Shown: positions 3,070-22,717 of the stretch, piece by piece | How positions within the stretch are numbered: the first letter of the stretch is position 1 | Layout: each line of letters opens with the position of its first letter | Source: Candidatus Heimdallarchaeota archaeon | GTDB taxonomy: Archaea > Asgardarchaeota > Heimdallarchaeia > Heimdallarchaeales > Heimdallarchaeaceae | Reading direction: 5' to 3' | Assembly (NCBI GenBank): GCA_023705905.1 | Contig: BPTK01000014.1 | Span: forward strand, 10,740 to 34,739 | DNA: 24,000 nt | Made by a program: the position numbers and the translations under genes | The notes under the pieces: model-generated | The model's input: the letters and a program-made list of their open reading frames with translations, nothing else | The model's database searches: none | What the model was told of the DNA's origin: nothing

Positions 3070-3346
3070 TTTTTTCACATCTTTGTGTATCAAATAAATA
3101 ATAAGTAAAACTCATTAATCAACTTTATGGAGTTATAGTGACATCTCCAATTTCATCTACGATGTTTTTTTCCGTATCTAGTTTTACCTTTTGCTGAACA
3201 AGTGTAAAAATTCATAGCTAGGGTTTAATTTTCGCTCCAAAGTAATTTATTGAAATAGGTTTCCACAAACTAAACAAGAATCAATTAGTTCAAGCTTTTA
3301 GTAAAAGATAAAAAAAGAAGTAAAAGGAATAGGAAGTTAGTTCTTT

Positions 3347-3574
3347 CTATTCTTGGTATCTATTTGGTTTCTGCTTTTGAAAGCATTCTCTACAATATAC
3401 TGGTCTTGACCCATCAGGCTTGAAAGGAACTTCTGTTTCTTGATTACATTTTGCACAAGTTGCTTTATGTAATTCTACTGGCCTTCTTTGTCCAAATCCG
3501 GAACTGTTTCCTCTATTTCCACTTCTATTTTGTGGCCTTCCGCCACTTCTATTTTGATTGTTTCTATATGACAT
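3347..3574 (-). CDS. small RG/N-rich zinc-ribbon protein, CxxC-x17-CxxC type
   Basis: 75 aa. CAKC, then exactly 17 residues (NQETEVPFKPDGSRPVY), then CREC, which matches the CxxC-x17-CxxC domain pattern. The N-terminal half is a low-complexity R/G/N/S tract (RSGGRPQNRSGNRGNSSGFGQRRP). An SD-like AAGGTAA lies 6 nt upstream of the ATG. Confidence 0.75.
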   Translation of the reverse strand: MSYRNNQNRSGGRPQNRSGNRGNSSGFGQRRPVELHKATCAKCNQETEVPFKPDGSRPVYCRECFQKQKPNRYQE

Positions 3575-3869
3575 TGTGTTTACCTTTGTTTTTTTTGTAG
3601 TTGATTGACAGCAAAATTAGTTGTTCTATTTAAATAAACAGTAGTGGATTGTTCCGTTTCCTAGTTATCCAAAAATACCTATTTTCAGCATATCGCTTTT
3701 TCTACATGCCGCCAAAGAATCTCTGCTATTTAAACAATGACATCTAGCTGATTTTAGCTAAGAGGTTTGGATTTTCTAAGCTAGACTTCATTCAAGCTTC
3801 CCACATTGAGTTATTTCTAGTTCTAAACGCGTATAGTTTAAGAGTGTGAGTTGCTTACTAATTATAAAT

Positions 3870-5430: not shown

Positions 5431-6627
5431 TTATGTCTCTTTCTCTGTCGTTTTTTCTTGCTCTTCCCATTGTGAATAGAGATCATCCAATAGAACCATT
5501 AAATCACCCATTATTTCGACTGATTTTGGTTTAATTATTCCATTTTCTATTATCACTTCTATATCACTAGACCCAACTAACTCAAGAAAGATTTTCATGA
5601 ATTCTTTTTCGGAAATCTCTAATAAATCAATTGTTTGCTTGATGTTTACCTCTCCATAAACCTTTAGAATTCCCTTAATCTGTTTAATCTGAGATTCTCT
5701 TAAATATGACTGGTCTATGTTAGTTTCTTTTTTTATGAAATTTATTGAATCGCGTATTTTACTTAATGCTGAAGCTTCAATCTTTCTTATAAGAGAATTA
5801 TCGCAGAATAATCTAGTTTTGGTATTATATTCAAAAACTGTTAAATTTGATAGCCCAACCAATGGTGAAATATCAAGCTCATTTAAATTTGAGCAATTAA
5901 CACCCAATTTATTTAATTTTAAACATTTCTGCATAGGTTTTAAGTCAAGTTCACTCAAATTATTATTCGACAAATCTAAATCGTCTAGATTCACAGCATT
6001 GTTTAAAGGTGTAAGATCAATAGATCCTATTTGATTATTGGATAAATCAAATTTCGTTAATCTTTCACAGTTCGTTAATGGTTCTAAATCTATCTCATCC
6101 AATTTACATTGAGTTAGATTTAGCCGTTCTAAATTACTAAGAGATTTGAATACTCCAAGGTCTAATTTAGTGAGAGGGGTCCAACTAAGATCCAATATTT
6201 TGAGATCACGGCATTCTGATAGAGGTTCAAAATCAATTTTTTCAATATCGCTAAATGAGAGAGAGAGGTTCTTCAACTTGACACATTTTTGTAAAGGTTT
6301 CAAGTTCAATTCTTTTATAGGATTACCTATTAGAACTAGAATTTCAAGTGAATTACATTTACTTAAGGGGCTTAAATCTAATTTGTAAATGTTATTCTCA
6401 TATAGATTCAATTCCAATAAATCTGTACAATGACGAACAGGTTCAAGATCAATATAACTTAATCTATTGTCATTGAGATAAATTTTCTGTATTTGAGGAC
6501 AGTTTCTTAATGGAGATAAATCTACTTCATGCCAGCCTTGTCCCTGAAAATCTAAAATCTTAGAAGTTTCACAATCTTTTTCTATTAGATAAGTTTCTCC
6601 ATCTGACAAACAAGTAAACTTAACCAT
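5431..6627 (-). CDS. leucine-rich-repeat protein with C-terminal winged-helix-like module and LLDDLYSQWEE tail
   Basis: About 11 tandem 22-residue LRRs with the pattern L..L.L..N.I..(I/L)DL.PL..C, for example LDLSPLSKCNSLEILVLIGNPIKELNLKPLQKCVKLKNLSL. No N-terminal signal peptide or TM segment. The C-terminal 75 aa resemble the shared module found in three neighbouring proteins. Confidence 0.8.
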   Translation of the reverse strand: MVKFTCLSDGETYLIEKDCETSKILDFQGQGWHEVDLSPLRNCPQIQKIYLNDNRLSYIDLEPVRHCTDLLELNLYENNIYKLDLSPLSKCNSLEILVLIGNPIKELNLKPLQKCVKLKNLSLSFSDIEKIDFEPLSECRDLKILDLSWTPLTKLDLGVFKSLSNLERLNLTQCKLDEIDLEPLTNCERLTKFDLSNNQIGSIDLTPLNNAVNLDDLDLSNNNLSELDLKPMQKCLKLNKLGVNCSNLNELDISPLVGLSNLTVFEYNTKTRLFCDNSLIRKIEASALSKIRDSINFIKKETNIDQSYLRESQIKQIKGILKVYGEVNIKQTIDLLEISEKEFMKIFLELVGSSDIEVIIENGIIKPKSVEIMGDLMVLLDDLYSQWEEQEKTTEKET

Positions 6628-6791
6628 AAAAAATAAGAAGTTACTAGAGATAAAAATCTTTCACAAGTTTATTGGGAACAAACTTAGAACATCAACCAGT
6701 TACTATATTCTTTAGTATTTTAGCCCTTTTTTCCGCAATATTTTAATATTTCTTATTTAAATTTCTATGAATCTACTAGGATGAATACTAA

Positions 6792-7658
6792 ATGGCTTTC
6801 TTTGATGACATCAATAATATCATGTATGTTGTTTTGGGTGTTATAGGATTAATTGTAATAATTCTCTTGATTTTTGCTCTAAAAGGTACTTTCTCTGACG
6901 TAAAGTTGAAGCGAAAGGCTAAATCTCTTGGTTTTCGTACTATTAAAGAGATGCACTCTCGTCAATCTGAAGGTTTTGAAAGTAAACCTGAGTTTGACAA
7001 CATCTCATCTTTAGGTTTTACAGATAAACAAGAATTCCTTTTTGGTGAAAAACTTGGTACTAGAACTCAAGAAGAAATGTATAAGAAATTGAATCAAACT
7101 GTTAAAGATTTGCTTGATCTAATGGAAGATTATAAAATTGACCTCCCTAAATTAGATAATGAAGTCACCTTAGTTTTATCACTTGACAAAATGACTGAAA
7201 TCTCTGAAGAGTTTACTCAGAAGCAAACTATCTTCAATAAGTTGCGAGAAGAGGTTAACAGCTATCCAAAAGAGAAAGTTATTGATCAAAGCAAGATAAA
7301 CATCCCCAAAGAAATAAAAGATTTACAAAATGAAACTGCAGCTAAGCTTTATTCTGTCAAGAATACACTTGACGTGAGGATGGAGTATGTTACTGAGCGA
7401 ACAAGTATAGTGGAATTGCTTAATCAGTTCAGGCCTAATGTTCCTGTCAATCTTAATAGGGTTGGAGAGATATCTAAACTGTCTTTAAAGGATGTCGAAT
7501 CCTTTTTGAAAGACATTGTCGAAGTTAATCCTGAAATAGGGGAATACTTAGAACTTGAGCAAGTTTTTATCAGGAAGACTGACACTGAAATACAAATTGA
7601 TGAACTCTTGAATCAATTCCAAAAATGGGAAGTTGAAGGAGAGGGGAAGAAGAAGTAA
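6792..7658 (+). CDS. N-terminally TM-anchored helical protein with C-terminal winged-helix module (DDRGK1/UFBP1-like layout)
   Basis: TM segment IMYVVLGVIGLIVIILLIFAL at residues 10-30, followed by about 170 aa of charged helical sequence. The C-terminal module is ELLNQFRPNVPVNLNRVGEISKLSLKDVESFLKDIVEVNPEIGEYLELEQVFIRKTDTEIQIDELLNQFQKWEVEGEGKKK. Confidence 0.7.
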   Translation: MAFFDDINNIMYVVLGVIGLIVIILLIFALKGTFSDVKLKRKAKSLGFRTIKEMHSRQSEGFESKPEFDNISSLGFTDKQEFLFGEKLGTRTQEEMYKKLNQTVKDLLDLMEDYKIDLPKLDNEVTLVLSLDKMTEISEEFTQKQTIFNKLREEVNSYPKEKVIDQSKINIPKEIKDLQNETAAKLYSVKNTLDVRMEYVTERTSIVELLNQFRPNVPVNLNRVGEISKLSLKDVESFLKDIVEVNPEIGEYLELEQVFIRKTDTEIQIDELLNQFQKWEVEGEGKKK

Positions 7659-7719
7659 GTTTGCAGTCTTCTAGGCAAAAGATATTTTAAGCTTGATTCA
7701 TTATCCTCTATGGTTGACA

Positions 7720-8406
7720 ATGGAATTAATCTTAACTGGGAAAAAAAAGAAGAAAAATTTTCGTAAAAAAATCAAGGACGATATTAGAAAGTTAGATCTT
7801 ACAAAAAAGAAGTTAACAGAGATAGACCTTACACCGCTCGAGCAGTGTCATCAGATCTATACAGTTAAGTTGAGTAACAATAAAATCTCTTCAATCAATC
7901 TAACTCCTCTAAGCAAATGTAAATCTCTTATCAGCGTATATCTAGAATATAATCCTCTTTCTTCAATTAATTTAGCTCCTCTTATCAAATGCCCAAAACT
8001 TGACAAAATTTCTTTTTCCAAGAATACTAAAATTGAATGGTTAGATGAAGAGTTTGACGTTTTTGCTATCCCAAGAGGGTTAAGACCTTATCTCAACCAA
8101 ATTAAAAAAGCACATGGTTCTTATGTTACTGAAACAGCAGAGCAAAAGCAAAAAATTGCTCACGAAAATGCTCCTGAGAAAATTACTGCTCTTCTCAATG
8201 AATTCCGCCCTGGTGTTCCTGTCAATGTTAATAGGGTTGCAGCACTAGCCGAAATACCAGTTGACGTTACCAAATCAATTATTTTAGAGATATTGGAACA
8301 CATGCCTGACGTTGGAGAATTCCTAGAACTGGAAGAGGTTTTTATTCGTAAAACAGAAGCTGAGATAGAGATAGATAAACTCTTAGATCAATTTCAAGAA
8401 TGGTAA
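7720..8406 (+). CDS. short leucine-rich-repeat protein with the same C-terminal winged-helix/LLDQFQEW module
   Basis: Three to four LRRs of the same Cys-containing type (IDLTPLEQCHQIYTVKLSNNKISSINLTPLSKCKSLISVYLEYNPLSSINLAPLIKCPKL). The C-terminal module ALLNEFRPGVPVNVNRVAALAEIPVDVTKSIILEILEHMPDVGEFLELEEVFIRKTEAEIEIDKLLDQFQEW is paralogous to that of 6792-7658. The ATG at 7720 is preferred. The ORF track uses a TTG at 7693. Confidence 0.7.
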   Translation: MELILTGKKKKKNFRKKIKDDIRKLDLTKKKLTEIDLTPLEQCHQIYTVKLSNNKISSINLTPLSKCKSLISVYLEYNPLSSINLAPLIKCPKLDKISFSKNTKIEWLDEEFDVFAIPRGLRPYLNQIKKAHGSYVTETAEQKQKIAHENAPEKITALLNEFRPGVPVNVNRVAALAEIPVDVTKSIILEILEHMPDVGEFLELEEVFIRKTEAEIEIDKLLDQFQEW

Positions 8407-8437
8407 AGAAGAAATAGATCAATGAGTATTGTCAATA

Positions 8438-9091
8438 TCAAAGGAACCTATGTTCTAAAGGTATTCCTAGTCCTGTTAGTGAAAATCCTTCGCTCGACAA
8501 ACCCATTTTAGTTAGCAAATCAACAACTGATGATTCTATCATCATCGATAGCTCTTCTCTACTTATTTTCTGTATTTCCTCGATGGAATATTGTCCCGAA
8601 AGTTCTCTCATTGCTTCTTTTATTATAAACAACACTTGCATTCTCATTTCTTTGGAAGAGAATTGGATTGAATCTTTTAAAATATTCAAGCAGAATACTT
8701 TCGGAGCGGAAATAGAAATCGATAGAGAACCTGACGCACCTATTTGTACATTATCTTTGGTTAATACTCCTTGTTCTTGAGGTATTCCCCACTTAACATT
8801 AAAAGACTGTCCTTCCAAGAAAACAATCTTCAAACCTTCTGTTCCTTTCTTCCTTTCTATTTTAAACATACCACTAGCTAGTTCGTCAATTATCTGCTCG
8901 TTTTCTATTACTACTGCTTTCTCAGCTATCTTTACTATCATCCCCTCTGTTTTCTTCAAATCAAAATCCTTTTGCCAGTTTTCATGAGCATGTGGATAAA
9001 CCCATGCAATCGTTTCTGAATCTCTTTCGCTTTTGATTATTCTTTTATCGTCAGAAGGACTAAAATCCTTTTTAATTATGAAAGACATCAT
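8438..9091 (-). CDS. SPFH/band-7-like protein (YdjI / COG4260-like)
   Basis: The motif order matches my recollection of the B. subtilis YdjI family: ETIAWVYP (compare DTLLWRYP), a beta-rich core with WGIPQEQGVLTKDNVQIGASGSLSISI (compare WGTPNPITLRD...RAFGIYSYRI), and a C-terminal helical part ending GFSLTGLGIPLE (compare SSFVVENISLPEE). A strong SD (GAGGTGA) sits just upstream of the ATGATG start, 11 nt after the stop of the upstream gene. Confidence 0.6.
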   Translation of the reverse strand: MMSFIIKKDFSPSDDKRIIKSERDSETIAWVYPHAHENWQKDFDLKKTEGMIVKIAEKAVVIENEQIIDELASGMFKIERKKGTEGLKIVFLEGQSFNVKWGIPQEQGVLTKDNVQIGASGSLSISISAPKVFCLNILKDSIQFSSKEMRMQVLFIIKEAMRELSGQYSIEEIQKISREELSMMIESSVVDLLTKMGLSSEGFSLTGLGIPLEHRFL

Positions 9092-9102
9092 TTCACCTCT
9101 AT

Positions 9103-10137
9103 TTATTGTTCAATTTCATAAAGCCCTGGGAAGTAGATCTTGTTTCCAGAACTGTAATCCTCATCAACTATTGCTAACCCTGTATCCTCTAGTTTCTTTA
9201 TCATTTGCAACACTCTTTCTATTGGCAGTTTGCATTCATTAACAATTTCTTCTCTTGTAGTATATCCCTTCTCCTTCGCTATTTCCATAATGTCTCTATG
9301 AATACTTGAATCATCGGCGAGAACAATAGTCATAGGAGTGTTGGAAGTCTTTTCTATAACACCAAGAATCCCTGAATCTTGTAGTTCAATAGCTACTCTT
9401 TCAAGATCTTCTACCTTAAACTCTACGTCAGGATATCGTTTTTGGAATATTTCAATGGTTTGGGAAAATTCTATAGATTTGATATCCTTCTCCATTAGAC
9501 TTAAACAAGTCTTGTGGAAATATTGTTTCAGTTTTTTGAAGTATTGCTTCTTATTGAAAAGTAAGGGTCTTGTTAATTCTTCATATTCATGGATTAGACC
9601 AAGAGTTTCAAGATAAGCTATATCACCTTCAAAGTCCTCACCTAATTTGCCAAAAAGGTCTTGAGAGGGTGCTAAAGTGTTAGTTAATACTCTTATCTTC
9701 AGCAAATCATCTATCTTTTGAACAGAACTCAATAGAAGAACTATTAGATCACGTACAGCTCCTTCACCTAAGGATAAGATGGTTCGCTCTAGATTTTGTA
9801 ATCCAACAGAAAAATCTTCAAATCGTGATAGTAATAAGAAATCTAGAATAATTATGGTTTCATGATGAAGAGTTAACTTTGTGGTATCCGTTTGTTCTAT
9901 TTGAGAGACAGTAGCAATTAATGTTTCAAATTGTGTTTTAACACCATCAACTGTAGTCTTTAGTTTTAGAAGAAGTTTCTTATTTTCTATTTTCAGATTC
10001 TTCATTATTGATAGGATATAATTTCTAACATCAATTATTCTTGAGTTAATCTCTAATTGAATTTTAGATTCATAACCATGAAATTCATTTACATTCGGAG
10101 GGAACTTAAGAAACTCTAAAGACATTTTTCCTGTCAT
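9103..10137 (-). CDS. helical protein with two C-terminal winged-helix domains
   Basis: 344 aa. The N-terminal 200 aa or so are predicted helical or coiled. The C-terminus carries two WH-like units: VEDLERVAIELQDSGILGVIEKTSNTPMTIVL and YTTREEIVNECKLPIERVLQMIKKLEDTGLAIVDEDYSSGNKIYFP. It appears co-transcribed with the SPFH gene (11-nt spacer containing an SD). Confidence 0.55.
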   Translation of the reverse strand: MTGKMSLEFLKFPPNVNEFHGYESKIQLEINSRIIDVRNYILSIMKNLKIENKKLLLKLKTTVDGVKTQFETLIATVSQIEQTDTTKLTLHHETIIILDFLLLSRFEDFSVGLQNLERTILSLGEGAVRDLIVLLLSSVQKIDDLLKIRVLTNTLAPSQDLFGKLGEDFEGDIAYLETLGLIHEYEELTRPLLFNKKQYFKKLKQYFHKTCLSLMEKDIKSIEFSQTIEIFQKRYPDVEFKVEDLERVAIELQDSGILGVIEKTSNTPMTIVLADDSSIHRDIMEIAKEKGYTTREEIVNECKLPIERVLQMIKKLEDTGLAIVDEDYSSGNKIYFPGLYEIEQ

Positions 10138-10159
10138 TTCTTCACACTTCTAAATTATG

Positions 10160-10188
10160 AACGTTCAAGCAATTAAGTGTTTTGCAAT
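10160..10188 (-). promoter_or_regulatory. conserved intergenic motif, copy A (aacgTTCAAGCAATTAAGTGTTTTGCAAT)
   Basis: 23 of 25 nt identical to copy B. It lies 27-51 nt upstream of the start of the WH/SPFH operon (10137). Confidence 0.4.
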
Positions 10189-10299
10189 GAAAGCAGACAG
10201 TTAGTAACTAGTGATTAGGAGTTAAATCATCAGACACATAATCTGAGTTATCACATCTTGTAAAAAATGGAATTAGATGGTTTAAGTCCAAAAGAAAAA

Positions 10300-13200
10300 C
10301 TACTTTTTCTTCCCTGTTCCTGTTTCTTCCCAGTTAGAGAATTGTTCTAGTAAATCATCAATAGCTGTTGTCATGTCTTCTCTCAACTCTGCACCTTCAA
10401 CTCTAGCTTCAAAGATTATCTCATCTCCTTCTATTCTATGAGGATATTCTAATGAGTAGATGTTTAACCAAGCTTTTAGTGATTTTTCGGTTTCAAACTC
10501 TACCAATGGTTTAAGTCTTGAAGTTGTTATTCTAGAGTAAGTATCTCTAATCTTTGCCAAACGGTCTAGTTTTTGATTATTGATTGTAGAGTTACTAATA
10601 ATTGGTGTTAATTCTTCAATTACTTTCTCAGTATTTTTTGAAGTTTCATGAACTATTGTAATTTTATCTTCAACTAAAGAAGTAATCGAGGAACTAAATG
10701 TTGAAGGAAGTTCAGCTAGAATCTCTCTGGAAGCACTAATATTGTTTCCTAATTCTTTTGCATTAGATAAGAAAGAAAGTAACTGAACATAACTAAATAA
10801 TACAGGTTTGAACCCTTTTTCTGACCAATTATGAGCTAGTCCGGATATAAGATCATTTGTAAAAGCATCAAGATTTTCAGCTGTTATCAAATTTATTGTA
10901 TCTAGTATTGTGCATCTGAACTTGTCTTCTAAGAAAGTTCTAGTACTTTTAAGAACACTTTCATATGTACTAATTTTATCTTTGCTAAATGACCTCTTTT
11001 TTGAATAAATGAGCATTAAATCTCTTGTTAAATCACTCAAAGATATTGTAAATTGATTGATTCTATCTATTGAAGAAGTTAAATCAAAAATAGTTGAAAT
11101 ATTAGTGAAAATGTCTTTAAATTCCTTCATTAATAAAGTATCATGCTTTCCTTGAAAGTTGTTCATGGTTCTTCTTAAGAGTAATTTCCTCTTTCTTGAG
11201 CGTATTAAACTTACAACCACAAGAGTTACTAAAGATAGAACAATTAATGGTAGAACAGCATAATATAGTATTATTTCAAATGTATTTAGATAGTTATCAA
11301 AACTTATTGGATTTTGATCATTTTGAACTTCCCATCCATCACTTCTTCCGTCCTCATCTGTATCGGGATTGGTTGGACTTGTAAAATAAAGATTGACTTC
11401 ATCACCATCGGTTAATCCATCATCATCAGAATCACTGTTATTGGGATCAGTCGAATAAGTATTTATCTCCGCTCCATCGGTTAACCCATCATCATCTGAA
11501 TCAGCATCATTAGGATCTGTATTATATGCACTTATCTCCGCTCCATCGGTTAATCCATCATCATCAGAATCAGCATCGTTAGGATTTGTAGAATTTTGAT
11601 ATTCTTCAAGATTAGTCAACCCATCAGTATCTAAATCACTAGAAGCATCATCAATTAGGGGATTGAGATCATTAGCTACTTCCCAACCATCAGGCATAGA
11701 ATCTGTATCGCTATCGTTATTACCAGGATCTGTGCCTTGGAGATATTCTTGAAGATTAGTTAAACCATCTGCATCTAAATCAAAAGCAGAATCATCAATT
11801 AAGGTATCTAGACCATATAAATTCTCCCAATCATCAGGCATATTATCACTGTCCTGATCCAAAGGTATATCATAAAAAACAATGTTACTCCAGTCAGAGA
11901 GCAAACCGTCTTCATCCATAGCTCTAACTCTAAAAAATTGAATCGGATCAGCACCAAGAATAACACTATAAAGCTGTATTGTCAAATAAGTTACATTATT
12001 TATTTCCCATCTTGCATAAGCTGCAGAACCTTCCCAGGGGGAGGTGACATCTGATTCTTCTACTATATATGAAACAATATATCCATCCAAGTCTTTAGAA
12101 GAGGACCAAGTTAGATTATACATTGAAGGTACTGTTTCCGGATGTATTTCTTCTAACTGAGGAGTTGAAGGTTTCGAGGAATCAACCGTATATTCAAATA
12201 TCTTTGACAGAGAGACTTTTCCAGATGTATCATTAATTTCGAAATAATATTGTATAGTTGTTTGATAAGGTAATTGTTGCTCAAGAATGTTATTTACGTA
12301 CAATGAAGCACCCAAATAATTTCCGATAGAAGATGTCCAAATTCCTCCTTGTATCTTATATGTGCAAATTACTGTGTCAACTTTCACGTCATCAACAATT
12401 CTTGATTTAATTGCAACCCTCCAAGATTCTACTAAATAATTACACTCTACAGAATTAATTGTAGGAGGTAGTAAATCATCATATTTAGTTGGGTAAGCAT
12501 CAAATGAACCCGCGCTTCCTTCAATAGAATAATTACCAACTTCGTTCCAATCTGACCAACAATTACCAAGAAACAGGCTTTCTTCATACCACATATTGTT
12601 TATTCCATAATCACTAGCTTGTATATTTCCACCTTTGTTACCTGCAAAGATATTTCCGTAAAAAATATTATTATCGGAACCGTAAGTTACGTAAACACCA
12701 TAATCAACGCTTGATAGAAAAAGATTATTTGATATATTACTATCATCCACATGGGACAATATTAGCCCAATGGCTTCCGAATTAATAGTATTGTTATAAA
12801 ATGTCAAATTATTTACATTTTGTGCATTAATAGCAGTAAAACGTCCATTTTTCACAGAGCAATTTGTTAATGTAATCGTCTCTGAATTCGCAATTTGTAT
12901 TCCATTCCAATTATTATTGGAATGAATATTTCGCAGAGTAGTATTAATACAATCTAATATCAAAACACCTAGATCTGAATTTGATACATCAATATTTAAA
13001 ACGGTAATATTTATACAATTTAATAAAAACATTTGTCCATAATCAACAGAATCTAACGTTTGATTTTCAATATTTGTACAATATCCAAAAGCTTTGCTGT
13101 TTATGCTATTATTGTATATGAAATATTTTAAATAATTTGCAATATTTGCTTCGTAAATAAATAAACCATCATTAATCAAAGTATTGTTACTTATTGTTGT

Positions 13201-13896
13201 ATAAGTTGAAATTGAAATTGAGATTCCATATCTTGAATTATTTTCACATGAATTTAACGTGATATTTGAACTTCCAGAAGCAACTAACTGAATGCCGATA
13301 TCATTATCTGTACAAGTGTTATTTATAATCTTGCAAGAAGGAGAATAATCTACAAAAAGACCATATTCTGAGCATTTTACAAAAGTGTTATTTATTACCT
13401 GAGCTGTACCTTGCGCAGTATTACTAATAAATAACCCATTTTGTCTAGCTTCAAAAAAACAATTTTGTACAATAAAGTGTTTTGTAGTTAACTTAATTTG
13501 TAAAGCATAGTCTAAGTGAGGAACTACTATTTGATAATTTTCAATTAAGTACGGAGCCTCTTCAGTTCCAGAGCCATTAAAACCATTGTCTACAAAATCT
13601 TGGTCTGATATTATTAGTAATGATTCATACAAAGTTGTAACATATGAACTTTTTATTTCTGATAATGTATCTGAAACATTTTTACCATCAAGAGGAGAAT
13701 TGAATGGTTTGATGATATTTTCAGTTGAGATAAAACTTCCAGAATTTGTTAAATTTCTACTTTCTTCAGGAAATATTAAGAACGATACCAAAGAATACAA
13801 TATTAACATTAACAAAAGAAAGCTTATTTTATATCTAGTAAATTTTTTGTAAATAGTATTTAAAAGAGCAAGATATTTATGAGTCTTAACATTCAT
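10300..13896 (-). CDS. giant single-pass receptor-like surface protein: parallel beta-helix (PbH1) + TSP3-like Ca-binding repeats + TM + cytoplasmic domain with shared WH/LLEQFSNWE tail
   Basis: N-terminal anchor ISFLLLMLILYSLVSFLIF. It has more than 10 PbH1-type repeats (NNTFVKCSEYGLFVDYSPSCKIINNTCTDNDIGIQLVASGSSNITLNSCENNSRYGISIS...). D-rich repeats follow (DSDNMPDDWE, DLDADGLTNLQEY, DADSDDDGLTDGAEI x3). A second TM segment IILYYAVLPLIVLSLVTLVVVSLI is followed by RSRKRK. The cytoplasmic region of about 290 aa ends in AIDDLLEQFSNWEETGTGKKK. Confidence 0.85.
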   Translation of the reverse strand: MNVKTHKYLALLNTIYKKFTRYKISFLLLMLILYSLVSFLIFPEESRNLTNSGSFISTENIIKPFNSPLDGKNVSDTLSEIKSSYVTTLYESLLIISDQDFVDNGFNGSGTEEAPYLIENYQIVVPHLDYALQIKLTTKHFIVQNCFFEARQNGLFISNTAQGTAQVINNTFVKCSEYGLFVDYSPSCKIINNTCTDNDIGIQLVASGSSNITLNSCENNSRYGISISISTYTTISNNTLINDGLFIYEANIANYLKYFIYNNSINSKAFGYCTNIENQTLDSVDYGQMFLLNCINITVLNIDVSNSDLGVLILDCINTTLRNIHSNNNWNGIQIANSETITLTNCSVKNGRFTAINAQNVNNLTFYNNTINSEAIGLILSHVDDSNISNNLFLSSVDYGVYVTYGSDNNIFYGNIFAGNKGGNIQASDYGINNMWYEESLFLGNCWSDWNEVGNYSIEGSAGSFDAYPTKYDDLLPPTINSVECNYLVESWRVAIKSRIVDDVKVDTVICTYKIQGGIWTSSIGNYLGASLYVNNILEQQLPYQTTIQYYFEINDTSGKVSLSKIFEYTVDSSKPSTPQLEEIHPETVPSMYNLTWSSSKDLDGYIVSYIVEESDVTSPWEGSAAYARWEINNVTYLTIQLYSVILGADPIQFFRVRAMDEDGLLSDWSNIVFYDIPLDQDSDNMPDDWENLYGLDTLIDDSAFDLDADGLTNLQEYLQGTDPGNNDSDTDSMPDGWEVANDLNPLIDDASSDLDTDGLTNLEEYQNSTNPNDADSDDDGLTDGAEISAYNTDPNDADSDDDGLTDGAEINTYSTDPNNSDSDDDGLTDGDEVNLYFTSPTNPDTDEDGRSDGWEVQNDQNPISFDNYLNTFEIILYYAVLPLIVLSLVTLVVVSLIRSRKRKLLLRRTMNNFQGKHDTLLMKEFKDIFTNISTIFDLTSSIDRINQFTISLSDLTRDLMLIYSKKRSFSKDKISTYESVLKSTRTFLEDKFRCTILDTINLITAENLDAFTNDLISGLAHNWSEKGFKPVLFSYVQLLSFLSNAKELGNNISASREILAELPSTFSSSITSLVEDKITIVHETSKNTEKVIEELTPIISNSTINNQKLDRLAKIRDTYSRITTSRLKPLVEFETEKSLKAWLNIYSLEYPHRIEGDEIIFEARVEGAELREDMTTAIDDLLEQFSNWEETGTGKKK
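11396..11590 (-). repeat. in-frame 69-bp tandem repeat (about 2.8 copies) encoding DADSDDDGLTDGAEI(S/N)xY(N/S)TDPN
   Basis: The unit ccatcggttaa(t/c)ccatcatcatc(a/t)gaatca recurs at 11405, 11474 and 11543, a period of 69 nt (23 aa). It lies inside CDS 10300-13896. Confidence 0.8.
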
Positions 13897-14150: not shown

Positions 14151-14720
14151 TTACTCAACTTCTTTTTTTTCCCAGTGCTCAATTATCAGATTCTGTTGTG
14201 CTGCCCACCAATAAAACACCTCTCTAATAAAGAAGTGACTTATTGTTAATCTTGGATTCCAAGCTTCATCTACTGTTTCCATGTGCTCATGACAGATCAT
14301 AACGAACTTTTCTCCGTTCTCTTCTTCCCAGATATTCTTCAAAAACACTTTTCCTGCATATTCTGCTATTGATTCTTCTGCAAAAGCTCTCGGGCATGCA
14401 TTTGGATAAGCACTTGGTAGAAGTATCACCATTTTGAACCTTATTTCTGGTTTAGATGGTACTTGCAAATATCCATCCCACTTCATAAAATTGTATTTTG
14501 GGTTCTTACTTGGAGCTAGGAAAAACCAACTTTTCCCTCCTTTTTTCTGTAAAAATTGAACATATTTTGCTAGATTTAATATTTCTATTTTCACTCTTTC
14601 CTGCCATTTTGGATGCTTTGGATTAATTTCAGTTAGTGCTTCGGGGAACTTAACTAAAACTTTCTCTGCTAGCGTCTCTTCCCATTTATTGTTTTCTTCT
14701 GTTATTTGAATGACCCCCAG
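14151..14720 (-). CDS. UFC1-like E2 (UFM1-conjugating-enzyme-like); start codon unresolved
   Basis: Matches to my recollection of human UFC1: WFFLAPSKNP (compare WFRLESNKEG), a catalytic-Cys context FVMICHEHM (compare GKICLTDHF), and no HPN motif. The ORF track starts at a GTG at 14594. However, the frame is open back to 14720, and the extension (..LAEKVLVKFPEALTEINPKHPKWQERVKIEILNL) aligns with the UFC1 N-terminal helix (..[33 protein letters not shown]). Confidence 0.8.
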   Translation of the reverse strand: MGVIQITEENNKWEETLAEKVLVKFPEALTEINPKHPKWQERVKIEILNLAKYVQFLQKKGGKSWFFLAPSKNPKYNFMKWDGYLQVPSKPEIRFKMVILLPSAYPNACPRAFAEESIAEYAGKVFLKNIWEEENGEKFVMICHEHMETVDEAWNPRLTISHFFIREVFYWWAAQQNLIIEHWEKKEVE

Positions 14721-14724
14721 TTAT

Positions 14725-14988
14725 TTATCCTACTATCCCACGGTTGATAACTTGAAAAGCTGTTCCGTATTTGTTTATTATCTCATCCACTGTAGAGTTG
14801 AAATCTGTTATTGTAAGAGTGTTACCCATTTCTGAAGATACAGCTATCTGCTCAGTTGCTATACTGAATTTCTTTGCAACTTCTACAACTAATTCGTGGA
14901 AAATTATTTCTCCTGGTGTTTCAAAAGGTATCTGTTTATGTTCTGTTCCAACAACATTTGTAAAGTATATTCTTTTTAGTGAACCCAT
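14725..14988 (-). CDS. UFM1-like ubiquitin-fold modifier with pre-exposed C-terminal Gly
   Basis: 87 aa. ELVVEVAKKFSIATEQIAVSSEMGNTL and the terminal AFQVINRGIVG-stop parallel human UFM1 [27 protein letters not shown] and ELRIIPRDRVG(SC). It has a single terminal Gly preceded by Val, as in mature UFM1. Confidence 0.8.
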   Translation of the reverse strand: MGSLKRIYFTNVVGTEHKQIPFETPGEIIFHELVVEVAKKFSIATEQIAVSSEMGNTLTITDFNSTVDEIINKYGTAFQVINRGIVG

Positions 14989-15026
14989 CTTTATCCCTTA
15001 TTTACAATCTATTTATTTGTGTTTCA

Positions 15027-16079
15027 TTAAATCTTTTTCGCTAAATCCTCAACAATTTGAGCGATTTTAGCGAAATTTTCTTCTTTTTCTATGTTATTTT
15101 TGGTATTTCTAATCGTTTTTAACATTAACTCCCTCTTTTTCTCATTTTTTGAAGAGAAATATTCTACTCTAAATTCCAATAGCTGAAGGAAAGAGAGTAT
15201 AGATTCTTTATCTTTCTTCGAAACATAAAATTTCCAATTTACATTATCATAAAGAAATTCTATTCTTACCGGTTTAGATATTTTTCCCTCCGCTATTATA
15301 GTGTTTTTCAGCTGATAATACATGTCATCTATGAATGCTTGTTTCATCAAAGGTTTTATTGAAGAGAGAGTAGTTTTTTCTTGTGCGCATATGTTAGCAT
15401 GCAAATCCATAGTAAACACCAAATCATCAGCTTTTGCCAGATTATCTTCAAACACTGAAAATCTTACAAAACACTCATTTCCTTCAAGTTTGTCTGTAGA
15501 TATTGATCCACTTAACAGATTTTGTTTGTATTCTATCTGTTTAACTTCAAAACTTTCCAAAATCTCCCTCATTCTAGATGAAACTGTTTGAATATCTAGT
15601 TCAGTTCCTTGAGGAAGATTAATTTTTGCCTTTGCTATGAATCTTATTGATTGTGGTACTTTTATTGAACTAACCTTTACTTTGATTTCCTCTACAGATT
15701 CATCTTTCAGTTGGTAATATTTTGTCTCTTTCACATTGGTAACTATTGATAAGAAATATGGATAAACTGATGCAAACTGTTTAACTGTGTGATTATCTGT
15801 AGAACTATGGAACACTTTTCCTACATGGGAGTGATAGATCCCCACTATCCCTATTCCCCTAGGAATTGCTTTTGAGATTTCCATTACCTCTTCTTGTGAA
15901 GGCTCAGCAATTATTTGATTTTGCATTTTATATTGTTTGCAGGGAACACTTGAGACGACGAATAGCTGATCCTTATAGTCATAACCTAGCAACCAACCAT
16001 AGATTTCTATTGTAGGAAAAGCATATGCATGTCTCTTTATATCGTCTGCTACACTATTGCAAACATTTACTTTACTCAT
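15027..16079 (-). CDS. JAB/MPN+ (JAMM) metalloprotease with about 220-aa C-terminal domain of unknown function
   Basis: N-terminal 130 aa or so contain the Glu of EIYGWLLGY and the motif YHSHVGKVFHSSTD, which is HxH-x6-S-x2-D, one residue shorter than canonical HxHx7Sx2D. The start ATG overlaps the E1 stop as ATGA at 16076-16079. Confidence 0.8.
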   Translation of the reverse strand: MSKVNVCNSVADDIKRHAYAFPTIEIYGWLLGYDYKDQLFVVSSVPCKQYKMQNQIIAEPSQEEVMEISKAIPRGIGIVGIYHSHVGKVFHSSTDNHTVKQFASVYPYFLSIVTNVKETKYYQLKDESVEEIKVKVSSIKVPQSIRFIAKAKINLPQGTELDIQTVSSRMREILESFEVKQIEYKQNLLSGSISTDKLEGNECFVRFSVFEDNLAKADDLVFTMDLHANICAQEKTTLSSIKPLMKQAFIDDMYYQLKNTIIAEGKISKPVRIEFLYDNVNWKFYVSKKDKESILSFLQLLEFRVEYFSSKNEKKRELMLKTIRNTKNNIEKEENFAKIAQIVEDLAKKI

Positions 16080-16942
16080 TCTTCTACCTCCTTTATTTCT
16101 TCTTCCAAATCTTCCATTAATTCTGACAATTCTTTGCCTTCGGTTAATTTTTCTATTTTTTCAAAAGATTGCTTTTTTTCCTTTTTAGAGAAGATTTTAT
16201 CTCCACAAACATGGCAGTTTGGATCATTTGGCATGGTTTGCTTTAGATAATGGTCTGTTAAAGCGTTAAACCCTATGTAATCTGGTATCGTTCCAAATTT
16301 CAGTAGATACTTTAAACTTATTTCAGTAACAAATGAAGCCACAATTGCTATTGTTGAAGGTAGAGAAGCTGTACAATCTTTGCCCTCTTTCTTCTCTCCC
16401 AAATCTATTGAACCTGTGCAAGCATAGCAAGCATTTTCTCGTGGTTTAACTAAGTGTACATACCCTCCTAAACCAGAACGTGTTGCTCCTGAATCTACGT
16501 ATGGACGATTAAGTTCGACACATTTACTGTTGACATACAATCTTGCTGGTAAATTATCCAAACATGAGATTGTGAGACTATTATCATTTATCAGTTCATC
16601 AAACTTCTCTTCGAAATCAGATGAACACACATCTACAAAATAACCATTTATTTCCACATCAGAATTTATTTTCTTTAAAACATCCTCTGCTGCTTTAACC
16701 TTTGTTTGACCAATCTGATCTACTGTGTAAAAGAGTCTATTTAGATTAACTTCTTCTACATAATCTAAATCGATAATATTCAACTCTCCCACCCCACATC
16801 GTGCTAGCATTTCAGCAGCTACACTCCCCACGCCCCCCACACCTATTATCAATACGTTCATTTTGGCAAGATCGAGCCAATCTACCTCTAGTCCAAACTC
16901 ACTCAATGATTTCAATCTTGTATAGCGATTTTCATCTTCCAT
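16076..16942 (-). CDS. UBA5-like E1 (ThiF/MoeB-fold adenylating enzyme of the UFM1 branch)
   Basis: [41 protein letters not shown] compares with recalled human UBA5 [41 protein letters not shown]. The catalytic-Cys block [30 protein letters not shown] compares with [30 protein letters not shown]. Zn-site pairs CYAC and NPNCHVC compare with CFAC and NPQCDDRNC. It has a single-domain, minimal E1 architecture with an acidic C-terminal tail. Confidence 0.9.
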   Translation of the reverse strand: [288 protein letters not shown]

Positions 16943-21039: not shown

Positions 21040-21260
21040 CTTTCCCCACTTATAGGTAGTGGCAAATAATTTTGAGGACTCTTCCCAACCCAAGAACGTA
21101 CAAGGTAGCATAGCAGTAAGTAGTAGCGTAGGGACTTTCAAGTTCTGGGATTACACCTCCAACACACAGTGTTAGTGGAGGTGAGAGGGTTCATCTCCTC
21201 ACCGGGACTCATTACTGGAGACAGTGTTATTGAGCACCTTAGGTACTCACTCCAGCTCCG
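21040..21260 (-). ncRNA. candidate TnpB-associated omega/reRNA scaffold
   Basis: This GC-rich stretch overlaps and follows the tnpB 3' end, which is where omega RNAs are encoded. Visible hairpins: cctcca-N14-tggagg (21156-21181), ggtgag-N12-ctcacc (21180-21203), ccact-N7-agtgg (21047-21063), and a longer-range pairing of cccaagaac (about 21089) with gttctggg (about 21141). The ends are not determined. Confidence 0.4.
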
Positions 21261-22717
21261 GGGGTAAGCAGATGACTCTGCTTTGTCTGTAGCCATTGGC
21301 TTAGGACAGGGAAGACACGAAAAGAACTGAGAGGGAAAAACTTCCCACTAACTAGATCTTTTATTGAGTTATACTTTGGTTGCAAAACATACTTGATTAG
21401 TCTTTTTGCTATGTTTTTCGCTCCATTCAAATCAGCATTAACTTGATATCCACAGTTGTTACAGATAAAGGTAGGTTGGTTGGGACGGGTAGTGTGATAG
21501 GAGCCACAGCGAGAACATGTAGAAGAGGTCCACGATTCACCAATAGCCAGGATTCTGTACTCTTCCCAACCATGAAGTGAGAGCTTGAATTTAAGTAATT
21601 CTGCAACTCTTCTATAATTCCATTTATGGACGCTTTTACGTGTTCGTGGTTGTTGGTTTCCTCGATAATGACTCTTACGGATGAGGATGGGAAAACCTAC
21701 CACCACATAAAGGTCATACCTTTTTCCAACCGAGAGAATGTATTTAACGAGTTTATTGACATAGGTGTGGTCAGTTAGATTATGTTTCGCTCTTTGCCTC
21801 TTTCTAAGCAATTTCAGTTTATAGAGAACTTGTTTTCTCTTTCCAAAACTCAAACTAGGTTTAGCTAAAATCTTCTGTAGTTTGGCGATTTCTCTTTCTT
21901 TTTCCTTTAGTAGTCTTTTTCGTGTCTTATCAGACCAAAATCTGATCTCGTGACGATTAATTACTCCTTTCGGAGTTAAGAGTGCACTTACTGCACGTTT
22001 ATTGATTCCTAGATCTATCCCCAGCACAGCTGGAGGATGAGAAGAAGAGTATTTATCTGGAGCATGAAGCAGTATGAAATGTACCCACCATTCCTTTTTC
22101 TTGGGATAGTAGAGCACTTCAAGAGCCTGTATTTTTCCTTGTTGGAGTTTATATTCGTGATAGGGAGAACATGCCAGAGGTAACCACAATTTTTCGTGAT
22201 TGCGAGTGTTGTTTTTCCGCGTATCTAGAGAGTCTCTTATCCCTACCCACCATCGAGCAATGGAGTTGGAAGGGGAACAAGTAAGAATGAACCTATTCTT
22301 ATTTACTGATTGTGTTCGAGGTATTTTCTTTGGTGAAGTTTTTTTAGCAGGGGAAGAGTTGAGAGCTTGTTGACTGTGATAAATAGCTGTTGCGTTGTCT
22401 CTACATTCTTGTAGTTCATCATGAGAGGAGCGAGGAAAGCGTTTCTTCAAATCATGTCTAACCTTTGGGCGAGATGTGTATGCAGTATTTTTTGTCGTTG
22501 TCAAGGTTAGTTGATCTAGTTTAGTTTTATTCACTTTTTTCTTCCTATTTTTTACACTCATAAGGTGATTTTCATTATGGTAAATTACCTTAAGAAAATG
22601 GTGAATAGTTCTTGAATCTCTTCCAGTAATCTGTTCTAATTTTCTCTTTTTCCGAGCAGTGAGCACTTCTGTTTTAATTTTCACCTTTACAGTTGTTCTC
22701 ACTCTATTTCTCGTCAT
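21239..22717 (-). CDS. tnpB: TnpB (OrfB/IS1341-type RuvC + zinc-ribbon RNA-guided nuclease family)
   Basis: RuvC-I VLGIDLGINKRAVS. Zinc ribbon TSSTCSRCGSYHTTRPNQPTFICNNCGYQV. RuvC-III NADLNGAKNIAKR. The basic N-terminal WED/REC-like region is typical of TnpB. Confidence 0.9.
   Translation of the reverse strand: MTRNRVRTTVKVKIKTEVLTARKKRKLEQITGRDSRTIHHFLKVIYHNENHLMSVKNRKKKVNKTKLDQLTLTTTKNTAYTSRPKVRHDLKKRFPRSSHDELQECRDNATAIYHSQQALNSSPAKKTSPKKIPRTQSVNKNRFILTCSPSNSIARWWVGIRDSLDTRKNNTRNHEKLWLPLACSPYHEYKLQQGKIQALEVLYYPKKKEWWVHFILLHAPDKYSSSHPPAVLGIDLGINKRAVSALLTPKGVINRHEIRFWSDKTRKRLLKEKEREIAKLQKILAKPSLSFGKRKQVLYKLKLLRKRQRAKHNLTDHTYVNKLVKYILSVGKRYDLYVVVGFPILIRKSHYRGNQQPRTRKSVHKWNYRRVAELLKFKLSLHGWEEYRILAIGESWTSSTCSRCGSYHTTRPNQPTFICNNCGYQVNADLNGAKNIAKRLIKYVLQPKYNSIKDLVSGKFFPLSSFRVFPVLSQWLQTKQSHLLTPGAGVST

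Follow-up and report, generated by a model that had tools for sequence, protein, structure and literature searches.

A winged-helix module with a conserved C-terminal tail, shared by four proteins encoded close together in a Heimdall-group Asgard archaeon, and its possible link to an adjacent UFM1-type cassette

In eukaryotes, the C-terminal helix of UBA5 binds the backside of UFC1 (PMC8481289), and the N-terminal helix of UFL1 binds the same site (PMC10702826). The UFM1 E3 itself is made of winged-helix repeats. One of its components, DDRGK1 (UFBP1), serves the UBA5/UFC1 cascade with UFL1 and is membrane-anchored, having an N-terminal TM segment, a long helix and a C-terminal PCI-type winged helix; the flexible terminal helix of the E3, whose AF2 pLDDT is below 70 when it is modelled alone, docks on the UFC1 backside (PMC10702826). 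PCI domains, found in the proteasome lid, the COP9 signalosome and eIF3, also combine a winged helix with a C-terminal helix after it and helical segments before it, and PCI subunits operate together with JAB/MPN subunits. Tandem winged helices make up ESCRT-II (Vps22, Vps25, Vps36). F-box, SOCS box and BTB are adaptor boxes on the substrate receptors of cullin-RING ligases.

A previously unannotated winged-helix domain followed by a conserved tail of 26-27 residues is present on four neighbouring proteins, here called A, B, C and D, of a Heimdall-group Asgard archaeon. They are encoded in the window, by which we mean the whole 24,000-nucleotide stretch of DNA that was analysed (32% GC). All four C-termini belong to one module family, with two close copies (B and C) and two diverged ones (A and D). 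The features of the locus are collected in Table 1.

Table 1. Positions of the module copies and of neighbouring genes in the window
Feature	Position (nt)	Strand	Basis
A C-terminus: second (A-type) winged-helix-like subtype and decayed tail (5434-5502), ending LLDDLYSQWEEQEKTTEKET, after LRR array	5434..5694	-	L001 relative, hhalign
B N-terminal TM anchor and cytoplasmic helical region	6819..7400 (TM 6819-6881; helical 6894-7400)	+	AF2
B module: winged helix (residues 204-262) and C-terminal helix/tail (residues 265-288, nt 7584-7655), ending IDELLNQFQKWEVEGEGKKK	7401..7655	+	BLASTP, AF2, tail HMM
C module: winged helix and tail helix after LRR array	8176..8403	+	family profile E 3.5e-29, tail HMM E 1.5e-5
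SPFH/Band-7 protein, conserved neighbour	8438..9091	-	Pfam Band_7_1 E 1.5e-9
Vps22/EAP30-like tandem winged-helix protein (ESCRT-II-like), conserved neighbour	9103..10137	-	Pfam EAP30 E 6e-6
D C-terminus: degenerate winged-helix-like segment and canonical tail (10303-10377), ending IDDLLEQFSNWEETGTGKKK	10303..10533	-	hhalign, HMM, pairwise alignments
UFC1-family E2	14151..14711	-	Pfam UFC1 PF08694 E 5e-6, 26.7 bits, cut-off 25
Ubl candidate, 87 residues, ending ...NRGIVG	14725..14988	-	cassette position, 90% identity in L014
JAB/MPN metalloprotease with 240-residue C-terminal extension	15027..16079	-	Pfam Prok-JAB E 9e-8, JAB E 2.3e-6
UBA5-type E1, acidic C-terminal helix ...GKELSELMEDLEEE	16076..16942	-	PDB UBA5 E 5e-55, Pfam ThiF E 6e-49

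Judging by BLASTP, B and C are clearly homologous (54% identity over 74 residues, E 1e-25). The match between B and D is confined to the last 25 residues (56% identity; E 7e-5 when the database holds six proteins), and the hhalign P for the D tail is 1e-7. The winged helix of D, which appears degenerate, escapes detection by profiles and would be recognised solely from colinear pairwise alignments to the canonical member P0047 (37% over 81 residues, E 2e-8) and to P0007. In these, RITTSRLKPLVEF pairs with IPLSRIAELI, and IEGDEIIFEAR with VGEY..EKVFIRR. The D module lies on the cytoplasmic side of a surface protein with Pfam NosD, Beta_helix and TSP3 matches and a TM segment at 11206-11274. The C-terminus of A is undetected by the family profile; A appears to join the family solely through one relative and a profile-profile match. 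The relative is a 376-residue multi-pass membrane protein at the syntenic locus L001, which ends in ...DWFEHEKTGKGKK, its last residues being EKTGKGKK, and whose C-terminus is 36.6% identical to that of A (E 2e-18). In an hhalign comparison, 67 columns of the resulting two-sequence A-type profile align colinearly with the tail-type profile (P 2.9e-5, probability 74%).

The original prediction had placed a shared C-terminal module on these four proteins, quoting their sequences, coordinates and strands correctly. The module holds for B and C and, in its tail, for D, while the D winged helix and the C-terminus of A have diverged. The G-x-G-KKK endings were confirmed for B and D, and LLN(Q/E)F-like motifs do bracket the module in B and C. 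To call the four proteins otherwise unrelated was an overstatement, since A and C share LRRs (E 5e-16) and the helical region of B is homologous to the cytoplasmic juxtamembrane region of D-type proteins in other genomes. This region of B is composed of four short GF-x-[ST]-x-x-E repeat helices and then three long helices that run into the winged helix; about 40 family members have homologous juxtamembrane segments.

The module consists of a canonical winged helix, an amphipathic helix and a short Lys-bearing end, in this order. AF2 models it as a winged helix of topology H-b-H-H-b-b-H with a flexible C-terminal helix (pLDDT 86.6, and 88.9 for a model of B residues 35-288). Of all helical elements, that of the tail has the lowest confidence (pLDDT 63-67), and the chain ends in disordered residues; both would be expected of a tethered motif. 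Counted from the wing strand, the tail keeps its length of 26-27 residues in most members and follows the pattern [IL]-D-x-L-L-x-x-[FY]-x-x-[WFM]-E-x-x-x-x-G-K-x-x, even on diverged winged helices such as those of D and of the A type. It is under strong constraint. Nearly all tail-type members carry a Lys 2-4 residues from the C-terminus, and the distance to the end is fixed. The C tail stops at W (…IDKLLDQFQEW*) without the G-x-G-KK end, and the C orthologues at L001 and at a further locus, L014, end in WNEE or W, without Lys; the G-K-K end is therefore not universally needed.

A full HMMER search finds the winged helix in 116 clusters at 50% identity (116 representatives at E<=1e-3, 36 of them at E<=1e-10). 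No Pfam model covers the module. All placed loci belong to Heimdallarchaeota or another Asgard MAG, and the family so far appears to be restricted to Heimdall-group Asgard archaea; one MAG holds at least four paralogues spread over three contigs. The family is combinatorial, with a variable front end, the winged helix and an output slot. The front ends comprise LRR, TPR, WD40, HEAT, TSP3/beta-helix-TM and a bare TM anchor. The slot is occupied by the tail in 54 of the 116 representatives and, exactly in the tail position, by a zinc ribbon plus RING-H2-like finger in 48 (Pfam detects zf-RING_2 in 22, Prok-RING_1 in 8 and zf-C3HC4_2 in 6). A TIR_2 domain (E 1e-11) takes this position in one representative, and an NYN RNase (E 1e-9) in another. 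The same front end may come with either output: LRRs precede the RING in P0009 and the tail in A and C, and a NosD-TSP3-TM part precedes the RING in L010 and the tail in D and P0010. None of A, B, C and D has a RING, and no RING ORF is found anywhere in the window. That the module is portable, as had been proposed, is thus well supported. By analogy, it resembles the adaptor boxes, which are likewise small conserved modules on many interchangeable LRR, WD40 or repeat domains. Such an arrangement would imply a single shared partner encoded once per genome. Unlike these boxes, the module has a winged-helix fold, and no cullin, Skp1 or Rbx1 partner was identified.

The cassette in the window is, by the families of its E1 and E2 (UBA5 and UFC1), of UFM1 type and not of ubiquitin type. 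After UBA5, the next-best PDB match of the E1 is MoeB (5e-22). UFC1 is the only E2 family matched by the E2 in the PDB (E 1.4e-3 to 2.6e-3), and the L014 orthologue scores 30 bits against Pfam UFC1. The E2 ORF is open upstream of the listed GTG start and includes a conserved N-terminal extension, to about nt 14711. Sequence searches give no match of the Ubl candidate to UFM1 or any Pfam family, and no family is found for the C-terminal part of the JAB protein, which ends in helices. In contrast to the UFM1 system, with its UfSP cysteine protease, the deconjugating enzyme here would be the JAB protein.

At L014, the genes for B-like, C-like, SPFH, Vps22-like, E2, Ubl, JAB and E1 proteins are contiguous; identities are 42% for B, 52% for C and 49% for JAB, but 90% for E2 and Ubl. 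L001 keeps part of this cluster. The SPFH protein is syntenic at both loci (92% identity at L001, 52% at L014), as is the gene of the Vps22-like protein, which scores 26.6 bits against EAP30 (cut-off 26.8) and matches SNF8 in the PDB at E 0.04. The cluster of B, C, SPFH, Vps22-like, E2, Ubl, JAB and E1 genes is conserved across about 50% divergence. The earlier suggestion of a link between module and Ubl cassette draws support from this synteny and from the RING alternative, but not from ten other family loci, where the cassette is absent from flanks of up to 10 kb. Restriction-modification, HEPN, NYN or helicase genes surround many of these cassette-less loci.

Because a RING takes the place of the tail in relatives, and the genes lie beside a UFM1-type cassette, the module probably couples sensor and membrane-anchor proteins to this tagging system. 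A slot that holds a RING (rarely TIR or NYN) or the tail suggests that the tail may be a trans-acting output element, that is, a flexibly tethered docking helix. It would connect the sensor and anchor proteins to the UBA5-type E1, UFC1-family E2, Ubl and JAB. At the membrane, B with its TM anchor and C with its LRRs would then serve as scaffold-type E3s or adaptors, or else be privileged substrates. Docking of the tail in trans onto the cassette, perhaps onto its E2, is the reading that we favour, tentatively and at somewhat less than an even chance. B has the architecture of DDRGK1 and lies beside UBA5- and UFC1-family genes. However, sequence searches do not connect B to DDRGK1 or UFL1, neither of which is in the Foldseek top 50; the module helix is C-terminal and followed by the G-K-K end, and dozens of paralogues, with LRR, WD40 or TPR parts, carry the module.

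Speculatively, the backside groove of the E2 would be the most specific target to propose. The tail resembles the UFC1-binding sequence of UBA5 and the N-terminal helix of UFL1 in being a terminal amphipathic helix that is flexible when unbound, its own binding to an E2 being putative. Two acidic residues precede its hydrophobic positions I66, L69, L70, F73 and W76, which are spaced i, i+3, i+4, i+7, i+10 like UBA5 L394, L397, M398, M401 and M404. When the UFC1 residues listed as binding the UBA5 helix (PMC8481289) are compared in the E2-UFC1 PDB alignment, the E2 keeps most of them: L39, V43, F54, L56 and K47 are retained, while L32 is replaced by V and I40 by A. It must be said against docking on the E2 that this spacing is generic for amphipathic helices. 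Moreover, the tail runs about 10 residues beyond its helix, whereas the UBA5 helix ends at a free carboxylate (PMC8481289), and a tail HMM searched against all window ORFs does not pick up the E1 C-terminus.

Other partners would fit parts of these data. Nearly all top Foldseek PDB matches of both AF2 models are PCI subunits (CSN2, CSN3, CSN4, Rpn3, Rpn5, Rpn6, Rpn7, Rpn9, eIF3a/c), which outrank many MarR-type winged helices, and Rpn6 is among the best PDB sequence matches, at a non-significant E of 0.5-1. Together with the long, helix-ending extension of the JAB protein, this would suit a small lid- or CSN-like complex in which the winged helices pack laterally and all C-terminal helices, those of the JAB/MPN protein included, form a common bundle, bringing sensors to the deconjugating enzyme. 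We consider such an assembly unlikely: the Foldseek matches are weak (E 4e-3 to 0.2, none at E<=1e-3; TM-scores 0.2-0.6 with high rmsd), Pfam detects no PCI domain, the helices ahead of the winged helix form a three-helix bundle, not a TPR-like solenoid, and are missing in A and C, and a RING, TIR or NYN in place of the tail would go unexplained. Equally improbable is that the near-C-terminal Lys serves as a Ubl attachment site, used by the cassette or by RING-bearing paralogues that recognise substrates through the shared winged helix. The near-universal Lys at a fixed distance from a disordered end would agree with this, and a DDRGK1-UFL1 fusion construct is itself ufmylated in vitro (PMC10702826). 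Against it, C and its orthologues lack the Lys, and a simple acceptor would not need a strongly conserved amphipathic helix. Sorting of membrane proteins into an ESCRT or microdomain pathway, by binding of the tail or winged helix to the Vps22-like or SPFH protein, seems to us more doubtful again. Both genes are immediate, conserved neighbours of B and C at three loci, ESCRT-II acts via winged-helix contacts, and a contextual SPFH-ESCRT link has been reported in archaea (PMC10936438); but A and C are soluble proteins, and the majority of family members lie away from such genes. The module differs from ESCRT-II in being a single winged helix plus tail, and it has no EAP30 or Vps25 profile match.

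The gene neighbourhoods of many members (restriction-modification, HEPN, Eco57I/MmeI, DEAD-MZB helicase, MvaI_BcnI and Nmad3 genes) raise the question of a hub of conflict or immune type that has nothing to do with the cassette. In such sensor-effector proteins, the winged helix would form the core that oligomerises or binds a ligand, with the tail recruiting another effector or regulating activation. The sensor-like repeat front ends, TIR and NYN among the outputs and the multiple paralogues in one MAG are in keeping with such a role, which we nevertheless hold to be rather unlikely. Expansion of LRR and beta-helix families is a general feature of Asgard archaea, and no PADLOC model fits A, B, C, D or P0011. 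The cluster of B, C and cassette genes is conserved across about 50% divergence, and the most frequent alternative to the tail, the RING, speaks for Ub-like conjugation. Finally, a chance or compositional likeness of Lys/Glu-rich C-termini might be suspected in a window of such low GC content, the more so as neither the A tail nor the D winged helix is significant alone. This we regard as barely credible, and for B, C and the D tail it is refuted, given the B-C match, the 116 database relatives and the confident AF2 fold. Indeed, when an HMM of 37 family tails was searched against all six-frame ORFs of the window, B (2.5e-9), D (2.1e-7) and C (1.5e-5) stood above a gap, below which came the Vps22-like protein (0.33) and A (0.59), the latter matched at the correct position.

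The C-termini of four neighbouring proteins, A to D, were originally predicted to be related, and for B and C this is secure. Their last 74 residues are 54% identical (BLASTP, E 1e-25), and a family profile over the winged helix (wing motif GEYLELEQVFIR) detects B at 5e-34 and C at 1e-29. D joins them through its tail: the match between B and D is confined to the last 25 residues (56% identity). A tail-only HMM, built from 37 family tails and run against every six-frame ORF in the window, detects B (2.5e-9), D (2.1e-7) and C (1.5e-5). For B, C and the tail of D, chance is excluded as the source of the resemblance. Below a clear gap come E, the Vps22-like protein, at 0.33, and A at 0.59, the latter with its match correctly placed; the tail of A is decayed. 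The six genes concerned, A to F, and the other features discussed here are listed in the table. The GC content of the window is 32%.

Features of the window and of related loci in other genomes or metagenomes
Feature	Position	Strand	Description
Unannotated stretch	3093-3846		Without annotation apart from the zinc-ribbon peptide
Zinc-ribbon peptide	3383-3457	minus	Small peptide with CxxC-x20-CxxC (CAKCNQETEVPFKPDGSRPVYCRECF)
A	5431-6627	minus	398 aa, LRR protein
B	6792-7658	plus	288 aa, helical protein with TM anchor at N-terminus
B juxtamembrane repeats	6894-7060		Residues 35-90; 3-4 tandem short repeats (S)LGF-x-[ST]-x-x-E-[WFYM]-x-x-A
B motif, first helix	7410-7430		ELLNQF
B motif, tail helix	7596-7616		ELLNQF
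C	7720-8406	plus	228 aa, LRR protein
C motif, first helix	8185-8205		LLNEF
C motif, tail helix	8374-8394		LLDQF
F	8438-9091	minus	SPFH protein
E	9103-10137	minus	344 aa; Pfam EAP30/Vps22-36, E 6e-6
D	10300-13896	minus	1198 aa; NosD/beta-helix and TSP3 ectodomain, one TM, ~300 cytoplasmic residues
Vps22-like/E2 gap, window	10300-13896		Holds D
Vps22-like/E2 gap, L001	3980-9629		Holds A-type multi-TM protein, truncated E2, D-like protein
Vps22-like/E2 gap, L014	5692-5762		Empty
Cassette, window	14151-16942	minus	Downstream of A-F; E2-like gene, 87-residue Ubl candidate ending in Gly, JAB protease, ThiF-type (UBA5-type) E1
Cassette, L014	5762-8211		UBA5-type E1, UFC1-family E2, Ubl ending in Gly, JAB
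E2 upstream stretch	14595-14711	minus	ITEENNKWEETLAEKVLVKFPEALTEINPKHPKWQER
E1 C-terminus, window	16076-16150		GK(E/S)LSELM(E/G)DL(E/D)
E1 C-terminus, L014	7657-7700		Same pattern
TnpB-like gene	21239-22717	minus	492-residue TnpB/Cas12f1-like protein, TNB domain E 3e-14
Small module ORF, L002	1937-2125		Little beyond the module

The winged helices of A and D give no significant match to the family profile (E>0.1), an extended profile of the cytoplasmic part of B detects neither A nor the winged-helix part of D, and hhalign finds no match for D minus its tail. In pairwise comparison, the pre-tail segment of D aligns colinearly with the H2, H3 and wing elements of two canonical family members, P0047 and P0007, and on this ground can be read as a degenerate winged helix. 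The C-terminus of A is 36.6% identical (E 2e-18) to that of a 376-residue multi-pass membrane protein, ending in DWFEHEKTGKGKK, from the syntenic locus L001. Compared by hhalign with the tail-type profile, this A-type pair matches over 67 colinear columns (P 2.9e-5); A is related as a diverged member only, and its C-terminus appears to be a separate winged-helix subtype. The accompanying claim that the N-terminal parts differ completely does not hold. LRRs are common to A and C, and D-type proteins elsewhere have a juxtamembrane region homologous to the helical region of B.

An exhaustive HMMER search with the B+C profile recovered 116 cluster representatives at E<=1e-3, 36 of them at E<=1e-10. 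All GTDB loci recovered bear the title Candidatus Heimdallarchaeota archaeon or Promethearchaeati archaeon. The module is not covered by any Pfam family. A word-indexed protein search, which is nearly blind to the Heimdall lineage, returned no match with the B module or with the A-type alignment and only four proteins with a 42-sequence family alignment; no record of B turned up in an exact-protein look-up. The family is a genuine, unannotated and lineage-specific winged-helix-plus-tail module.

The module is portable, as had been proposed, the winged helix standing behind many front ends and before a tail, RING, TIR or NYN output. The tail forms the C-terminal end of 54 of the 116 representatives; in 48 a zinc ribbon and RING-H2-like finger follow the winged helix (Pfam zf-RING_2 in 22, Prok-RING_1 in 8, zf-C3HC4_2 in 6), and 14 are fragments or have other content. 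In this last group, tail and RING are replaced by a TIR_2 domain in P0097 (322 aa, E 1e-11) and by a Zc3h12a-like NYN RNase in P0114 (533 aa, E 1e-9). Front ends include LRR (13), TSP3 (11), TPR (9), WD40 propellers (about 6) and HEAT (6). Either output may follow the same front end: LRRs occur with a RING in P0009, and a NosD-TSP3-TM front end occurs with a RING at locus L010 and with a tail in P0010, D and the D-like protein of L001. RING motifs were seen only in paralogues from other genomes; the four proteins lack them, as does the rest of the window.

In most tail-type members the tail extends for 26-27 residues after the wing strand (VFIR) with the pattern [IL]-D-x-L-L-x-x-[FY]-x-x-[WFM]-E-x-x-x-x-G-K-x-x, placing Lys 2-4 residues from the free C-terminus. 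C and its orthologues end at W or WNEE, C being without the GK end. In RING-type members no more than the first half of the helix (I-D-x-L-L) is kept, after which the zinc ribbon begins. Readings of the tail as MIM1 (the Vps4 MIT-binding motif), LIR/AIM or KKXX were rejected as unsupported, their characteristic residues (Arg/Lys for MIM1, a beta-strand core for LIR, Lys at -3 with -4 or -5 for KKXX) not being consistently present in the listed tails. A near-identical motif occurs in the first helix of the winged helix and in the tail helix of both B and C. It could be coincidence or a hint that helices swap or the module self-associates; at the H1 site the tail HMM scores are non-significant.

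The AF2 model of the B module (85 residues, 42-sequence alignment; pLDDT 86.6) contains the elements H2-9, E15-17, H18-25, H29-42, E47-50 and E55-58, that is, an H1-b1-H2-H3-b2-b3 winged helix, followed by a helix at 66-80 and five disordered final residues. The topology recurs in the model of B residues 35-288 (254 residues; pLDDT 88.9, pTM 0.73), where four short and three long helices precede the winged helix. In this longer model pLDDT is just 63-67 for the tail helix, suggesting that it may be a flexible tether. C is predicted to have the same fold from its clear homology to B. The juxtamembrane repeats of B, also found in relatives, are modelled as short helices, and their motif is kept across TM-anchored family members.

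With both B models, the top Foldseek matches in the PDB are almost all PCI subunits (CSN2, CSN3, CSN4, Rpn3, 5, 6, 7 and 9, eIF3a/c), at E 3.7e-3 to 0.2 and TM 0.2-0.6, none reaching E 1e-3. Pfam PCI (PF01399) matches neither B, nor its 254-residue region, nor is it among the top families of the 116 members, and Rpn6 appears in the PDB sequence search at E 0.5-1 only. The modelled PCI-likeness of the module is taken as a lead and does not classify it. PDB sequence searches with the module profile and with a 244-position profile gave only non-significant or coiled-coil matches, DDRGK1 and UFL1 not among them. In architecture, B resembles DDRGK1/UFBP1, with a TM segment at the N-terminus (residues 10-30), a long helical stretch and, C-terminally, a winged helix (204-262), and with UBA5-type and UFC1-family genes as neighbours. 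The likeness is architectural only; B has no sequence match or top-ranked fold match to DDRGK1 or UFL1, Pfam DDRGK failing to match it and DDRGK1 being absent from the Foldseek top 50.

From the matches of its E1 and E2, the neighbouring cassette appears to be of UFM1 type. A phmmer search of the PDB matches the E1 to UBA5 at E 5e-55, MoeB following at 5e-22. UFC1 is the sole E2 family in the PDB that the E2 matches, and Pfam UFC1 (PF08694) scores it at 26.7 bits in the window and 30 bits at the metagenome locus L014, with a curated cut-off of 25. This threshold is passed with the N-terminal helix included: the ORF is open and conserved at the protein level for some 40 codons before the listed GTG start, and this upstream stretch, in which there is no ATG, GTG or TTG start, matches UFC1 helix 1 as well as the N-terminus of the L014 protein. 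The archaeal E1 has at its end a putative LSELMEDL helix resembling the UFC1-binding C-terminal helix of human UBA5 (L394, L397, M398, M401; residue numbers from PMC8481289). The Ubl candidate matches nothing in Pfam or among PDB sequences; phmmer and a two-sequence profile gave no UFM1 match, and BLAST gave no alignment with the human UFM1 query used. Its size, position and C-terminal Gly are all that favour a UFM1 assignment, and we do not place it in that family. A phylogenomic study reported UFC1 and UFM1 from eukaryotes only, tracing UFL1 and DDRGK1 back to Asgard archaea (Picchianti et al. 2023, PMC10183829). A structural survey reports Ufm1 homologues in nine Asgard clades and makes no mention of UFC1, UBA5, UFL1 or DDRGK1 (Kostlbacher et al. 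2026, PMC12962969).

At L014, B-like, C-like, SPFH, Vps22-like, E2, Ubl, JAB and E1 genes are contiguous, with no D-like insert. Identities between the window and L014 are 42% for B, 52% for C, 52% for SPFH, 51% for the Vps22-like protein, 49% for JAB and 66% for E1. The E2 and Ubl are each 90% identical, as against 42-52% for B, C, SPFH, Vps22-like and JAB, which looks like the extreme conservation typical of ubiquitin. L001 keeps a B orthologue (89% identity), C', SPFH and the Vps22-like gene; these are followed by the 376-residue A-type protein, a truncated E2 and a D-like protein ending in a canonical module. The gap between the Vps22-like gene and E2, of differing content at the three loci, is a hotspot for module-bearing genes.

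At ten other family loci the cassette is absent within 10 kb, and several of these lie among restriction-modification, HEPN, NYN, MvaI_BcnI, Nmad3 and large helicase genes. This indicates that the family is dispersed and that linkage to the cassette is confined to the B/C lineage. The original core idea of a portable module for docking, with a tie to the Ubl cassette, is partly supported in a more sharply defined form, the partner and biochemical role being predicted. One assembly, GCA_025960485.1, has at least four paralogues on three contigs (L009, L010, L022). Their neighbours encode type I restriction-modification, HEPN, Eco57I/MmeI, MvaI_BcnI, Nmad3, NYN and RNase H proteins and a 1741-residue DEAD-MZB helicase, and one member is inserted between hsdM_N/YgjP genes and hsdS. 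These neighbourhoods are variable and defence-island-like.

The tail fills the slot of a RING, TIR or NYN domain in paralogues, and for this reason is read as a trans-acting output element, whose leading candidate partner would be the neighbouring UFM1-type cassette. UBA5 binds UFC1 by its C-terminal helix, of which L394, L397, M398, M401 and M404 fill a backside groove at UFC1 helix 1/strand 1 (PMC8481289). The scaffold-type E3 UFL1 with DDRGK1 is built of winged helices, and places a flexible terminal helix on the same UFC1 site (PMC10702826). The tail hydrophobics I66, L69, L70, F73 and W76, preceded by two acidic residues, have spacing identical to the UBA5 helix, though such spacing is generic for amphipathic helices. 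Most UFC1 groove residues are kept in the archaeal E2 alignment. Likeness to the UBA5/UFL1 docking helices consists in this tail pattern and groove conservation only, as predicted from sequence, and the tail HMM does not detect the E1 C-terminal helix. We tentatively favour, at somewhat less than an even chance, the explanation that the tail serves for output or docking and is coupled to the cassette; about half of this likelihood falls to the version in which the E2 itself is the docking site. A fuller proposal, rather unlikely as a whole, is a Heimdall-group proto-UFMylation with the winged-helix-plus-tail module as E3 or adaptor element. B would serve as a DDRGK1-like scaffold anchored in the membrane, and LRR, WD40, TPR or surface-receptor proteins, interchangeable and numbering in the dozens, would each recruit the UFC1-family E2 via the conserved C-terminal helix. 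Together they would form a repertoire of substrate receptors, comparable to F-box proteins, for a modifier of UFM1 type and older than the eukaryotes.

Other explanations compete with this one. The module might form a PCI-like assembly with JAB, a reading to which the Foldseek ranking points and the silence of Pfam PCI does not; we consider it improbable. It is similarly doubtful that the tail lysine or lysines serve as an acceptor tag, an idea consistent with their closeness to the free C-terminus in most tail-type members and at odds with the lysine-free end of C. Given the defence-island-like neighbourhoods and the TIR and NYN outputs, the family could be a conflict-system hub without relation to the cassette; PADLOC matches none of the module proteins to a defence family, B and C do lie beside a cassette, and this too seems improbable. 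A role in sorting linked to the Vps22-like and SPFH proteins, which accompany B and C at all three syntenic loci, is very unlikely. Coupling of the tail to the cassette remains the preferred reading.

UFMylation is among the least understood ubiquitin-like pathways. What the locus contributes is a UBA5-type E1, UFC1-family E2, Ubl and JAB in one operon-like cluster, the membrane-anchored and LRR winged-helix proteins beside it, and the replacement of the tail shared by B and C by RING fingers in paralogues. If the tail couples proteins to the cassette, this would give a concrete, testable picture of archaeal ubiquitin-like target choice and possibly an ancestor-like state for scaffold-type (winged-helix) E3s. 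Even with no link to the cassette, this is an unannotated, combinatorial, lineage-specific domain family joining sensors to RING, TIR or NYN outputs.

The TnpB-like gene of the window is probably an IS605-family element, and a similar element flanks a small module ORF at two further loci, L002 and L003. These free-standing ORFs of 62-80 residues include P0038 (62 aa). The P0038-type ORF, which consists of the C-terminal part of the winged helix and a canonical tail and has a TnpB gene as its neighbour in a Heimdall MAG, could be either a module that stands alone or the fragment of a gene. A small zinc-ribbon peptide is encoded in an otherwise unannotated stretch of the window.
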